From: Acidimicrobiia bacterium
GTDB lineage: Bacteria > Actinomycetota > Acidimicrobiia > Spongiisociales > ZC4RG35
Length of the DNA stretch: 64,000 nucleotides
Assembly (NCBI GenBank): GCA_965203555.1
Contig: CBDBCY010000004.1
Location: 448,001 to 512,000, forward strand
Direction: 5' to 3'
The notes below the pieces were generated by a model. That model ran no database searches. It saw nothing but the letters and a program-made list of their open reading frames with translations, and was not told the origin of the DNA. Shown one piece after another: positions 22,544 to 25,874 of the stretch (positions are counted from its first letter, which is position 1; each line of letters begins with the position of its first letter). Position numbers and translations under genes: made by a program.

Positions 22544-22876
22544 ATGGGCAGACCATCTGCGGATACTCTCTCCGCAGGACTCGCCGGCAACATATCAGAA
22601 GCCGAACTCCGAAAAGGGATGGGCGAGTACTCTGATCGCATTACCGACAGCGGGCCTTTCGCCTCGGGGGACACACTGTTCGCTGTGGGGCATCACACAG
22701 AAGACAGGGATGCGTGGTTTGATATCCTCACTGTCACCACGGACGACATCATGCGAGAGTGCGGCATTCCCGAGGAGGAGAGAGAGGAACAGAGATCGCT
22801 GAACCGCTCCTACGCAAGGCTTTTTCTTCGGTTCCACAACGGACCGGAAAGGACCGTCCCTCTGTTAGAGGACTGA
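22544..22876 (+). CDS. Hypothetical protein, module A gene 1 (paralog of 25479-25874)
   Basis: Shares H.....D...V..D....CGIP...RE.....R.Y......H......PLL[ED][ED] with the 25479-25874 product. Confidence 0.75.
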   Translation: MGRPSADTLSAGLAGNISEAELRKGMGEYSDRITDSGPFASGDTLFAVGHHTEDRDAWFDILTVTTDDIMRECGIPEEEREEQRSLNRSYARLFLRFHNGPERTVPLLED

Positions 22877-22895: not shown

Positions 22896-23200
22896 GTGCC
22901 TCCCTACATGTACTGGCCATCTAAATACGCGGAGTTCGATTTCGATGAGGAGTCTGCTTCAAGAACCGCGTGTCGGGAAGCGACATCTTCTATGTTCTTT
23001 CCCTACCACCGAGAATGGTGCGTAGGTCCAGGGGCGAACCGTCGGCATACGATGTGATATACAGTGGCGGGAGGATGATCGCCCGACCGACCATAGCTGT
23101 GGGGGAACTTCCTGCGGGCCATCTTCTCGAAGTGGGGTTTCGTAGAGACTTTCGCCAACGGGGAGAGGTGTGCTACGTGTTCCACGCTCGCTATCGCTAG
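22896..23200 (+). pseudogene. BrnT/RelE-like toxin-fold gene, module A gene 2, frameshifted near 22953
   Basis: SD GGAAGGGGG then GTG 22896 gives MPPYMYWPSKYAEFDFDEES; continues in another frame as FKNRVSGSDIFYVL...LLEVGFRRD...CYVFHARYR. Confidence 0.6.
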
Positions 23201-23259
23201 GAAACTGCCTGGTCAAGGGGAGTTGAGTACCGACCGGGTGGTGGATGCTCCTATGTTTG

Positions 23260-24483
23260 TCAAATCCGGGTTTGGTGGGGGGTGTGGGTGGTGAGCCAGT
23301 GTTGGTATTGGGTGGCGAGTTGGTGGTTGTGGTATTGGCCTCGTTCGAGTTGTGAGAGGCGGGTTGGGTGGCTGTGGAGGGCTGTGGCGGCGCGAGCGAG
23401 GGTGATCTGGTGTTTTTGGCGTAGGCAGCGGAGATGGGGGCCGTGGGGTGTTTGGGGCGGGTCGGTCAACAGTCGGTAGACCTGGCGGGCGATGTACCGT
23501 TTCAAAGAGCGGATGATCTCTTTTCGGGTTTTTCCTTCCGCTTGTCGCCTTTGGACGTATTCGATGGTTGGTTGGTCCCAGCGCATTCGGATGGTGGCGA
23601 TGCGCCAGAGGGCGTTGTTGGCGTGGCGGTCGCCGCCGCGGTTGAGTCGGTGACGCACTATGCGTCCCGACGACGCCTGGACGGGGCTTGCGCCGCAGAG
23701 GGCGGCGAACGACGCTTCTGTGCGCATGCGGTGGGGGTTGTCACCTGCTGTGACCAGCAGAGCGGCTGCGGTGTTTGGGCCGATCCCCGCCGTGGCCAGC
23801 AGTGCCGGGTTGGCCCGGGCGCAGAGCTGTTTGATTTCGGTGTCGAGTTGTTGGATCTCCGAAGTGAGCGCCTGATGTCGGCGGGCCAGCAGGCGCAGTG
23901 TTTTCTTGGCATAGGCGACGGTGGTCTGAGCTGTGCCGGGACGATAAGCCGAGCAGACTTTCACGCGGGCTGTGGGGGACAGTCCCCCGAGTTGGTGTTT
24001 GACCTGGTCGGGAGCGGTGACCACCAGGGCGTGCAGTTGGTTGATGGCCTGGGTACGGGCCTTGGCCGCTGAACGACGAGCCACAGACAGCATCCTGATC
24101 GCTTCGACTGGTCCATTCCCGCTTTTGGGTGTCCCGGTGGCCTGCCCGCTCAGGACAGCCCGTGCCGCTGCTTGGGCGTCGGTGGCGTCGGTCTTACCCC
24201 ATCGGCGGCGCAGCTGGCGGTTGGGACGATTCACTTCCACCACCTCGACACCGATGCTCACAAGGTGGCGGGCCAGGCCGGCGCCGTAGCTGCCGGTGCC
24301 CTCTATCCCAACTTGGGCAACGTTGCCGTGTGACCCCAGCCAGGCGCCCAGCTGGCCATAACCGGCTGGGTCGGCGCTGAACGATGCCGTGCCCAACACT
24401 CGACCGGTGGCATCCACCACCGCGGCGACATGAACATCACGGTGGGTGTCCACCCCACCAAACACAACCTGATCCTCTGACAC
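23260..24483 (-). CDS. IS110 recombinase (DEDD RuvC-like + Tnp domain) with an extra C-terminal HTH
   Basis: GGVDTH, GIEGTGSYG, GKTDATDA, G..P.QASSG, LNRGGDRHAN.AL, LKRYIAR; SD GAAGGAGAGG before GTG 24483. Confidence 0.95.
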   Translation of the reverse strand: MSEDQVVFGGVDTHRDVHVAAVVDATGRVLGTASFSADPAGYGQLGAWLGSHGNVAQVGIEGTGSYGAGLARHLVSIGVEVVEVNRPNRQLRRRWGKTDATDAQAAARAVLSGQATGTPKSGNGPVEAIRMLSVARRSAAKARTQAINQLHALVVTAPDQVKHQLGGLSPTARVKVCSAYRPGTAQTTVAYAKKTLRLLARRHQALTSEIQQLDTEIKQLCARANPALLATAGIGPNTAAALLVTAGDNPHRMRTEASFAALCGASPVQASSGRIVRHRLNRGGDRHANNALWRIATIRMRWDQPTIEYVQRRQAEGKTRKEIIRSLKRYIARQVYRLLTDPPQTPHGPHLRCLRQKHQITLARAATALHSHPTRLSQLERGQYHNHQLATQYQHWLTTHTPHQTRI

Positions 24484-24529
24484 AGCTTCCTCTCCTTCAA
24501 AGTAGAATCCGTTTCTGTTCTCCCTGACC

Positions 24530-24703
24530 CGAAAAAGCGGTTGGACGGACCACTCAAGTGGCAAAGAGCAAGGCTCCTATCAGGTCACAGCCGCCCTGTC
24601 GGGAGAGCACCGCCCCCAGGCCGGAAGCCGGCCGACAGATCCACCAAAAGGCACAACCGGCCAGGTTAGGTTCGAGTCAGACCCGCCCCGGCCTAGGGGC
24701 ACC
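24530..24703 (-). ncRNA. Predicted IS110 bridge RNA (target-binding and donor-binding loops); ends approximate
   Basis: Contains AACCTAACC (24664-72) and TGGTGG (24641-46) matching the reconstructed target, plus ATAGGAGC (24573-80) and TGAGTGG (24550-56) matching the circle junction. Confidence 0.85.
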
Positions 24704-25034
24704 TATAAGTATGAGTGGGTTAGGTTGACTGTTTTGCCCGGTTCTGTGGTCACCGGTGGAGGTTCCCACCCCCCTGACATACACGACACGCAAAAGGAAG
24801 GGGGTTCTTTGTTCACGACACCTTTCGTCGCTTTGCCACCTGTGGCGTTCAGCAAGAGGCCTCATCACCGCTGAGCGGTAGATACGTTCGACCACAGCGA
24901 ACTCGGTGAACGAGTGTCCGTCGGAGGTCCACCCGAACAGGTCCCGGTTCTTGATCTGAGCGACCGCCCTTGCAAATAGGTCTCGCTCCGGACCCTCGGG
25001 AGCGTCACTGATCGCCCTGGCAAGTCCGTGAAAG

Positions 25035-25450
25035 TCACAGTTGTTTACGTCCTCTGCGTCTCCGGCGGCCTGCGCTGGGTTTGCTCATAGCGTGGAACAC
25101 GATGCACCGCGGAAGGACTCGACTCTCTCTTCGGCATTTCTCTTGCCACTTCTCGCTCAAATCCTGCCGTAAAGCGATTTCGATCAAGGAGTTCTCGTTC
25201 TTCAACACCATGGCGTATGTGGCGAATGTTTGGTAGAAGTCGTCAGCGTCCGGGTCTGGGTCGTCGGCGTTGAATGCGACAGTATCTCGCGGGTCTTGTT
25301 CCATGACCCACCTAATTTCGTTCTCTGTAATGCCCCACCAACGCGCGGTGGGCAAAATGTCCAGCCTGACGGTTTCCGGATGAGGCCAGAAAAGGCCCTG
25401 ATAGTGAACTACCGGTCGAGGATCGTCATAGCAAGATACGGATCTTCCAC
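25035..25450 (-). pseudogene. BrnT/RelE-like toxin-fold gene, module B gene 2; true start unclear
   Basis: Frame open from 25478: ..GLFWPHPETVRLDILPTARWWGITENEIRWVM...LIEIALRQD...CIVFHAMSK; the first canonical in-frame start (TTG 25355) lies inside the homologous region. Confidence 0.6.
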
Positions 25451-25478: not shown

Positions 25479-25874
25479 TTATTCGTCTAAAAGGGGAATG
25501 TGATTAGGGACGTCATGCTTGTCCCAGTGCAGAATCCTTCCCAGCAGGTAGGTCCGGTAGCAGTCAAGGGCTGCTTCTCTCTGATGGTCGGGAATTCCGC
25601 ACATCTCCACCAGTTCATCCTCAGAGACAACAAACAGATCAACTGTGACAAGGTCGCCGGTTTCGCGATGGGGAATCCCCAACAACCCACTGGGCGGATT
25701 CTTAGCGACGATGTCCCTGTAATAATCGAAACCAGGGGGGTAAAACCGCGAGTCTGTTTCTGTATCGGCCTCTTGGATTCCCGGCGATTCGTCGGTTACC
25801 GAAGGACTGGCAGGCAACCAGCCGCCCCCCGCACTTCTCCCAGTCACGGTGCCGCTACGGTGTTCCAAAGCCAT
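25479..25874 (-). CDS. Hypothetical protein, module B gene 1 (paralog of 22544-22876)
   Basis: C-terminal half aligns with the 22544 ORF (CGIP..RE, R.Y, terminal PLLDE vs PLLED). Confidence 0.75.
   Translation of the reverse strand: MALEHRSGTVTGRSAGGGWLPASPSVTDESPGIQEADTETDSRFYPPGFDYYRDIVAKNPPSGLLGIPHRETGDLVTVDLFVVSEDELVEMCGIPDHQREAALDCYRTYLLGRILHWDKHDVPNHIPLLDE

Follow-up and report, generated by a model that had tools for sequence, protein, structure and literature searches.

A predicted bridge RNA with four readable guides in an IS110-group insertion sequence of an Acidimicrobiia bacterium, and its target site as set by empty sites

Introduction

Bridge RNAs have been predicted in 85.7% of the elements of the IS110 group (Durrant et al. 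2024, PMC11208160). In IS621, as set out in the portions of two reports on which we draw (PMC11208160, PMC11208158), a recombinase with a DEDD RuvC-like domain and a serine-containing Tnp domain is served by an RNA encoded in the long left end (LE) of the insertion sequence (IS). This RNA presents a target-binding loop, where the left target guide (LTG) of 9 nt lies on the 5′ side and the right target guide (RTG) on the 3′ side, as well as a donor-binding loop with a left and a right donor guide (LDG and RDG). Its promoter is divided between the right end (RE), which carries the -35 hexamer, and the LE, which carries the -10 hexamer; top-strand information is kept at the junctions, and the nucleotides beside RTG and RDG, the handshake guides, are complementary to the other substrate. 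The same properties are seen or predicted in the element described here, an IS110-group insertion sequence on the minus strand of a stretch of 64,000 nt (the window) from Acidimicrobiia bacterium assembly GCA_965203555.1 (contig CBDBCY010000004.1, here C4; window C4:448001-512000 of a 3.4-Mb genome in 4 contigs).

Set against the same descriptions of IS621, the element lacks a separate 5′ stem-loop before the target stem-loop. The core is CT in IS621 and YC here, where only the second base is common to the donor (TC) and the target (mostly CC). The RTG of IS621 has 4 variable nt, whereas that of the present element has 5 variable nt plus the core C, and the half-sites of the window copy abut. 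ISPpu10 of Pseudomonas putida, in the part of its report used here (bioRxiv 10.64898/2026.03.19.712850), is likewise a natural IS110 element with a bridge RNA, a junction promoter, a target in repeated sequence and a U.G wobble between the LTG and the left target (LT); unlike the present element it has a CT core and a 2-bp duplication. For ISPpu10 a target stem-loop is described that contributes to recognition. The IS1111 group shares the recombinase family, and there the RNA lies in a long RE accompanied by 7-17-bp subterminal inverted repeats (PMC11208160, in part). In the present element, by contrast, the RE is 15 nt (23259-23245), the LE, the much longer non-coding end, is 233 nt (24716-24484), and the RNA lies in the LE.

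We are highly confident that positions 23245-24716 (minus strand) hold an intact, probably mobile IS110-group insertion sequence, whose 233-nt LE encodes a bridge RNA of about 173 nt with two stem-loops, each containing an internal loop. The four guides, their positions in the loops, their covariation with the flanking DNA, the exact inserted segment and the intact motifs of the enzyme are all shown in what follows. The system belongs to an established class of RNA-guided recombinases, of which it is an unusually clear case.

Results and Discussion

Element boundaries and target site

The boundaries of the window copy and the sequences adjoining them are as follows.

23245-24716, minus strand: IS110-group insertion sequence, 1472 bp, from ACTCATAC.. 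to ..ATAGGAGCAT, with ends set by empty sites
24717-24726, minus strand: left target and target-side core, AACCTAAC-CC; the first 9 nt pair with the LTG (9/9) and the tenth, a C, stands opposite U24663
23245-23254, minus strand: left donor, identical with the right-end terminus, ATAGGAGCAT
23239-23244, minus strand: core C and right target (RT) CACCA, matching the RTG at 6/6 positions

In the window copy, AACCTAAC-CCAC-TCATACT stands at the left junction (24726-24708) and ATAGGAGCAT-CCAC-CACCC at the right one (23254-23236). An original prediction, made from the letters of the window alone, had recorded these junctions together with four guide strings in the left end (AACCTAACC, TGGTGG, ATAGGAGC and TGAGTGG), and all of them were recovered on the minus strand exactly where it had placed them. 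It had further taken the CCAC present at both junctions as a duplicated 4-bp core, and had reconstructed from it an empty target, AACCTAACCCACCA, and a circle junction, GGAGCAT-CCACTCA. This part of the geometry did not survive comparison with related copies.

Family matches were found in 16 of 16 same-genus genomes searched and in 10 of 24 other relatives (27 of 41 genomes, including the window's own). Left ends with their flanks were extracted for 36 distinct copies (numbered L; genomes are numbered G, and W is the window copy), and right ends were located for 21. The ends of the element are conserved in the 36 copies, and at each of the 18 distinct right junctions that were counted the right terminus closes with ..GCAT. 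Besides fragments, the window's own genome contains three copies at 87% identity (L002-L004; the right end of L004 has been lost) and a further one at 72% (L005).

Copies L002-L004 interrupt an ISL3-like transposase gene. Two uninterrupted copies of this gene in the same genome read ..AACAACCTCATC|CAAACCCTCC.. (in short form, ..CTCATC|CAAACC..), and the occupied copies read ..CTCATC|CACTCATAC...ATAGGAGCAT|CAAACCC... The second case was provided by copy L051 of genome G004, whose occupied site reads ..CAACTCAACC|ACTCAT...GCAT|CAAGCCATCC.., and by L073 and L078, where the repeated target of L051 is empty; these two read ..CAACTCAACCAAGCCATCC.. and obey the same rule. What was inserted is, in both cases, ACTCATAC...ATAGGAGCAT with one C added, or this segment shifted by one base. 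In the terms used for IS621, the target is LT-CC-RT, the left junction is LT-CC-ACTCA.. and the right junction is ..GGAGCA-TC-RT.

The three ISL3-like insertions (C4:1961515, 1150576 and 2915211 for L002, L003 and L004) lie at the same position of the gene (..EGINNLI|QTLRR.., translated by eye), one insertion sequence thus targeting another, and the two further copies of the gene in the genome are still empty. The sequence targeted by L051 and its sublineage partner L068 (G004) is repeated 36 times in five genomes searched and by eye looks like a conserved motif inside the transposase gene of a different IS110-family element.

The same genome contains a paralog in which the flanks of the window copy are contiguous (left flank 77% identical, right flank 95%); it reads GTCAACCTAACCCCACCACCCGG (core part AACCTAACCCCACCACCC, with four C's). 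This paralogous empty site is the sequence that the rule predicts, AACCTAAC-CC followed by CACCA. The empty sites (two ISL3-like genes, L073 and L078, and the paralog) therefore leave only one C common to donor and target, which in the window copy is present at both 24717 and 23244. The recurrence of CCAC at the two junctions is in part a coincidence, because the right target happens to start with CAC. The corrected target is AACCTAACCCCACCA, that is, AACCTAAC-CC-CACCA, 15 nt, one C longer than first proposed, and the circle junction is predicted to be ..GGAGCAT-C-ACTCA.., one C shorter. Insertion is scarless and site-specific, with neither long terminal inverted repeats nor a multi-bp target duplication; in the comparison of empty with occupied sites the inserted segment is exact and the repeat consists of one C only. 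The boundaries thus moved by a single nucleotide, which changes the core register and leaves the interpretation of the element standing. Two other registers that were tried, one with core TC followed by a right donor (RD) CACTCA (option A) and one with core CA (option C), predicted empty sites that differed by one or three nt from those observed.

The same element and bridge RNA could be combined with the earlier geometry, where the duplicated stretch is a 4-bp CCAC (or 2-bp TC, with CACTCA as RD), the target reads AACCTAAC-CCAC-CA, and GGAGCAT-CCAC-TCA is the circle junction. This would account for CCAC at both junctions of the window copy and would give a promoter spacer of 18 nt, which is still acceptable; the window copy, moreover, has no ortholog empty site for comparison. 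We nevertheless consider it very improbable. Two ISL3-like and two L051 true empty sites are each one nucleotide longer than it predicts, the paralogous site is so as well, and sister copies lack CCAC at the right junction. Its 14-mer has no match in the genome at up to 1 mismatch, whereas the guide-predicted 15-mer (the 9-mer site of the LTG plus the reverse-complemented RTG) has exactly one match in the 3.4 Mb, which is the empty paralog.

Structure of the predicted bridge RNA

The RNA and its guides are located in the left end as follows.

24530-24702, minus strand: predicted bridge RNA, about 173 nt; start inferred from the -10 hexamer, end taken as the base of stem-loop 2
24612-24700, minus strand: stem-loop 1, with the target-binding loop; stems 24700-24676 with 24636-24612, inner hairpin 24662-24650
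24664-24672, minus strand: LTG AACCUAACC (DNA string AACCTAACC, 24672-24664), on the 5′ side of the internal loop (24675-24663); followed by U24663, able to wobble-pair opposite the core C
24639-24646, minus strand: RTG UGGUGG (24646-24641), complementary to C+CACCA, on the 3′ side of the loop (24649-24637); followed by A24640 and U24639, complementary to donor T and A (handshake-like positions)
24530-24601, minus strand: stem-loop 2, with the donor-binding loop; stems 24601-24584 with 24546-24530
24570-24580, minus strand: LDG AUAGGAGC followed by C-U-U, matching the right end ATAGGAGC-A-TC (the string ATAGGAGC at 24580-24573)
24549-24556, minus strand: RDG UGAGU, complementary to ACTCA, followed by G24551 (core C), G24550 (position 8) and U24549 (position 7); DNA string TGAGTGG, 24556-24550

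The original prediction had proposed the target-loop and donor-loop layout of an IS110 bridge RNA and expected the guides to fall in two internal loops. The consensus fold, generated by RNAalifold from 23 non-redundant left ends, bears this out, with the guides unpaired in two internal loops. LTG and RTG occupy the 5′ and 3′ sides of the first, and LDG and RDG the 5′ side (24583-24570) and the 3′ side (24555-24547) of the second. The donor guides are complementary to the element's own termini, the LDG to that of the RE (ATAGGAGC) and the RDG to that of the LE ((C)ACTCA). The LDG sequence is invariant across the family alignment, including a mismatch at the A that adjoins the core, and a U.G wobble on the core C is possible.

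Pairing in the scaffold is conserved through sequence change. Helix 1 of stem-loop 1 comprises 24 pairs, 6 of them with compensatory changes, and 98.7% of its alignment cells are paired; the inner hairpin adds 3 pairs (1 compensatory), and helices 3 and 4 of stem-loop 2 together 12 pairs (4 compensatory). Over these 39 stem pairs, to which the pair counts are confined, 98.1% of the cells hold standard pairs, versus 42-53% once the 3′ partners have been displaced by 1-3 columns. Changes on both sides were found in 11 of the 39 pairs (mean of shuffled alignments 5.1; 0/500 shuffles reached 11), and 43 cells carry a both-side change (shuffled mean 8.3). The inner pairs that RNAalifold places in the donor loop are invariant and hence lie outside the covariation test. 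Several stem pairs are predominantly G.U, so the pattern fits an RNA transcribed from the minus strand only.

Covariation of guides and flanks

In the alignment of left ends, a conserved scaffold is interrupted by two hypervariable windows, which coincide exactly with LTG and RTG and differ even between copies with up to 93% identity elsewhere. For the RTG, the six nucleotides that precede an invariant AUCUG were reverse-complemented and compared with the six bases that follow ..GCAT. All six agreed in eight copies: W (CCACCA), L002 (CAAACC), L046 (CAACAC), L023 (CTCGGT), L049 (CCCACA), L051 (CAAGCC), L052 (CGCTAC) and L005 (CTGGCA). Over 18 independent pairs, 68 of 90 variable positions matched, against a mean of 1.41 of 5 in 300 non-cognate pairs (0/10,000 permutations). 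The LTG was scored in the better of two registers, and over 31 independent events the mean match was 7.45 of 10, against 4.66 in 906 non-cognate pairs (0/10,000 permutations). The target guides that had been named from the window copy alone thus match their flanks well beyond chance. It had also been asked whether other copies sit in sites resembling that of the window copy; the sites differ, and the guides have changed with them to match the new flanks.

The donor side is less informative in this respect, because guides and termini are both conserved. Covariation of RDG with RD was seen in a subgroup of three copies, L049, L058 and L029 (G008, G013 and G014), where the left end begins ACTCC.. 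and the RDG is GGAGU; elsewhere they are ACTCA and UGAGU. The left end of this subgroup reads ACTCCATAC, with one extra C.

Taken by themselves, the LDG and RDG could pass for repeats of the termini, direct and inverted, and one might propose that the repeats of the left end are protein-binding or other DNA-level sites (for example subterminal repeats) and that the protein chooses the target. On such a model LTG and RTG would not be expected to change in step with unrelated target flanks across copies, nor the stems to keep pairing through compensatory and G.U changes that fit a minus-strand RNA. The IS110 family is, in addition, experimentally RNA-guided, according to the parts of PMC11208160 and PMC11208158 that we cite. 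We regard a DNA-level origin of these repeats as exceedingly unlikely and read the four segments as RNA guides.

Several observations weigh against the reading of the locus as a functional, bridge RNA-guided element. The family copies are related to one another, and the permutation figures overstate their independence. For one of the 18 RTG pairs (L054-) the call of the right end is doubtful, and the pair is included in the total. The flanks of L021 (G002), L028 (G012) and L012 (window's own genome, C4:78694) match neither target guide well, with LTG scores of 3-4 of 10, RTG scores of 2-3 of 6 for L021 and L028, and no right end for L012; these copies may be off-target insertions of a half-match-like kind or may have been rearranged later. 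The orthologous empty site of the window copy was not found among 40 relatives, and its pre-insertion site is known from the same-genome paralog only, at the flank identities given above. Folded as a single sequence, the left end was no more stable than its shuffles (z = -1.18; 26 of 200 shuffles equal), and the minimum free energy structure pairs part of the LTG inside the loop. The consensus fold was relied on because the single-sequence fold is uninformative. Rfam 15 gave no match for 23000-25000 at E up to 1. To these may be added the conserved LDG mismatch beside the core and the failure to see the RE-LE joint among the assembled contigs of two sequencing runs (X1 and X2), which, contigs alone having been searched, has no weight either way on circles.

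Core register and half-site spacing

Among 31 distinct left flanks, the dinucleotide preceding ACTCAT was CC in 22, AC in 4, TC in 2, GC in 2 and GT in 1, while the right junction was TC in all 18 distinct right flanks. Donor and target do not share an identical 2-nt core; only the second base, C, is common, the empty sites having CC versus TC in the donor. In this the element departs from the published cases of IS621 and ISPpu10, as far as the sources cited describe them, in that the donor and target cores are non-identical at position 8. The first core base has been described as the less conserved of the two (PMC11208158, in part).

The spacing of the half-sites was compared among copies that have a U before the inner hairpin, with the same nine guide positions used throughout. 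In 16 events (L061, L048, L020, L056a, L025, L024, L023, L051/L068, L057, L052, L059, L056b, L055, L067, L005 and L063) the ninth guide base pairs with the last base before ACTCAT, and the LTG and RTG sites overlap by one C. In 9 events (W, L060, L002/L004, L046, L026, L062, L054+, L054- and L065) there is one more C, the half-sites abut, and the following U can wobble-pair; for ISPpu10 a U.G wobble is described at the LTG-LT interface in the part of the bioRxiv report cited above. Both arrangements include copies in which all nine guide positions match the flank, and the true empty sites give the same crossover rule for both. Copies L046 and L020 have an identical bridge RNA and represent the two arrangements; the spacing is therefore a property of the site and not of the element.

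The positions beside the guides appear to divide the reading of the core between them. Positions 7-9 of the reverse-complemented RTG are ATC, the end of the donor, in 30 of 31 copies. Position 8 of the reverse-complemented RDG could be scored in 26 copies, and in 20 of them it agrees with position 8 of the left junction, which comes from the target (C/C in 16, A/A in 4). The tail of the LDG is CUU or UUU in every readable copy (27 of 31), which reads the donor T and wobbles on C. In IS621, according to the portion of PMC11208158 used here, the core and handshake positions of the incoming donor pair with the RTG, and the core of the incoming target pairs with the RDG; the split seen here fits that post-exchange pairing.

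From this it is possible, and we suggest it tentatively, that the copies form a lineage with a one-nucleotide common core, in which T occupies position 8 of the donor and C (or A or G, according to the LTG) that of the target. The RTG would be matched in advance to the incoming donor A-T-C and the RDG to the incoming target (A)-C-C. An A.C mismatch and a G.T wobble would then become Watson-Crick pairs upon exchange of the top strands, a thermodynamic ratchet favouring insertion over excision. Overlapping or abutting half-sites would be accepted, a target geometry more flexible than that of IS621. Since the cores differ, the natural junctions, with TC at 18 of 18 right junctions, would also show that it is always the top-strand sequence that is inherited.

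The recombinase

The element's two ends enclose one long open reading frame (ORF), open across all 407 amino acids (aa).

23260-24483, minus strand: IS110 recombinase gene, 407 aa, GTG start, with a GGAG-rich ribosome-binding site a few nt upstream
23260-23484, minus strand: C-terminal tail of the recombinase, 74 aa, past the IS621-like core, with a helix-turn-helix (HTH)-like segment

The aligned start codon in sister copies is ATG; this and the ribosome-binding site therefore assign the protein to 24483-23260. Its family membership agrees with that originally proposed for the element. PF01548 (DEDD_Tnp_IS110) matched with E 1.2e-24 (87.3 bits; cutoff 29), PF02371 (Transposase_20) with E 3.1e-19 (69.6 bits; cutoff 21.3), and NCBIfam NF033542, 'IS110 family RNA-guided transposase', with 190.2 bits (cutoff 140).

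The nearest solved structures are those of the ISCro4 transposase (PDB 9t56, E 3e-12), which is the best match, and IS621 (8wt6, E 6.3e-11). With ISCro4 the RuvC and Tnp regions both align, including the D, E, D..D and SG positions; the similarity is low, and the two were compared at the protein level only. With IS621, whose solved chain has 328 residues as against 407 aa and an HTH-like tail here, phmmer aligned the C-terminal Tnp region only. The alignment with ISCro4 and a motif search placed the motif residues at D12 (GVDTH), E61 (IEGTG), D99 and D102 (KTDATDA) and S271 and S272 (ASSG). The counterparts in IS621 are D11, E60, D102, D105 and S241 (PMC11208158, in part). By our own reading the SG of ASSG (residues 270-273), which is aligned to the SG of ISCro4, provides the catalytic serine. 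The tail gave a sub-threshold match to an Xre-type domain, HTH_31 (E 4.2e-5, 24.2 bits; Pfam cutoff 27). The closest plasmid-borne relatives are actinobacterial, from Rhodococcus erythropolis PR4 (NC_007491.1) and several Streptomyces plasmids, with 83-98% of the protein aligned at 50-57% identity. For most of them the annotation is 'IS110 family transposase'; they are distant relatives and were compared at the protein level only.

Predicted circle-junction promoter and probable mobility

Each end of the element carries one half of a predicted promoter.

23258-23263, minus strand: -35 hexamer TTGACA, in the right end, overlapping the stop codon
24708-24713, minus strand: -10-like hexamer CATACT, in the left end

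When RE and LE were joined in silico as the empty sites dictate, the two hexamers came to lie 17 nt apart (TTGACA-17 nt-CATACT). TTGACA is present in 8 of the 21 right ends listed and a near variant (e.g. TTGCAA) in most of the others, at a fixed distance from the end. In copies L049, L058 and L029 the distance from the -35 hexamer to the terminus of the RE is less by 1 nt, and the LE has gained 1 nt before CATACT, so that the 17-nt spacer is kept. A scan of the integrated locus returned no sigma-70-like site. From these sequences the promoter is predicted to be reconstituted only in the circular form, with the RNA starting near 24702. In IS621 and ISPpu10 the promoter is rebuilt in the circle, as stated in the parts of PMC11208158, PMC11208160 and bioRxiv 10.64898/2026.03.19.712850 that we use.

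For transcription, circle formation and chemistry, the mechanism proposed here follows IS621 by homology. The element would excise as a circle, in which the RE-LE junction, ..TTGACAAACATAGGAGCAT-C-ACTCATACT.., would create the promoter, and the RNA would be transcribed from about 24702. The donor loop would then hold the RE-LE junction and the target loop AACCTAAC-CC-CACCA, with the LTG AACCUAACC(U) pairing with the bottom strand. The DEDD/Ser recombinase would exchange the top strands just 3′ of the shared C.

An alternative is that the bridge RNA architecture is real and the window copy a fixed, immobile relic, whose guides record a past insertion only. The window sequence type is present as a single copy in the genome, its nearest paralogs being 87% identical, one perfect cognate site is still unoccupied, and the RE-LE joint did not appear in the run contigs. 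We judge this improbable, since the ORF is open over 407 aa with all catalytic motifs, both termini, the four guides and both promoter halves are intact with perfect matches, and contigs from the two runs carry the junctions without differences. The same contigs also contain the paralogous empty site. A probably mobile element remains the reading that we prefer.

No new principle emerges from the element, bridge RNAs having already been predicted for most IS110 elements, and the variants seen here, a core position that is not identical and two spacings of the half-sites, are modest ones. Its value lies in a very clean natural data set, with about 30 independent insertions in one genus, elements 70-93% identical to one another, more than 12 target specificities, and true empty sites in the same genomes as the insertions. 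The many specificities and the empty sites make three questions directly testable, namely the minimal common core, the reading of the incoming strand beside RTG and RDG, and the one-nucleotide shift of the half-sites. All three are relevant to the design of bridge recombinases and to the prediction of their off-targets.

Genes adjoining the insertion site

The insertion region looks like a cluster of repeated small genes whose function Pfam does not assign. The ORFs flanking it at 22544-22876 (plus strand) and 25479-25874 (minus strand) share a similar C-terminal stretch (..CGIP..PLL[DE][DE]), and neither had a Pfam match at E up to 0.1. The ORF at 25035-25355 gave one weak, sub-threshold match (SoPB_HTH, E 0.07).

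Immediately beside the insertion site, the window has two overlapping short ORFs (22896-23057 and 22970-23200, plus strand), and paralog L069 a single ORF of 163 aa (554-1045). In both X1 and X2, contigs that agree with the rest of this stretch have an additional T following position 22957 (at depths of 11.3 of 11.3 and 10.1 of 10.1, respectively), and the difference may reflect either an assembly error of 1 nt or a genuine frameshift in the gene that adjoins the insertion site.

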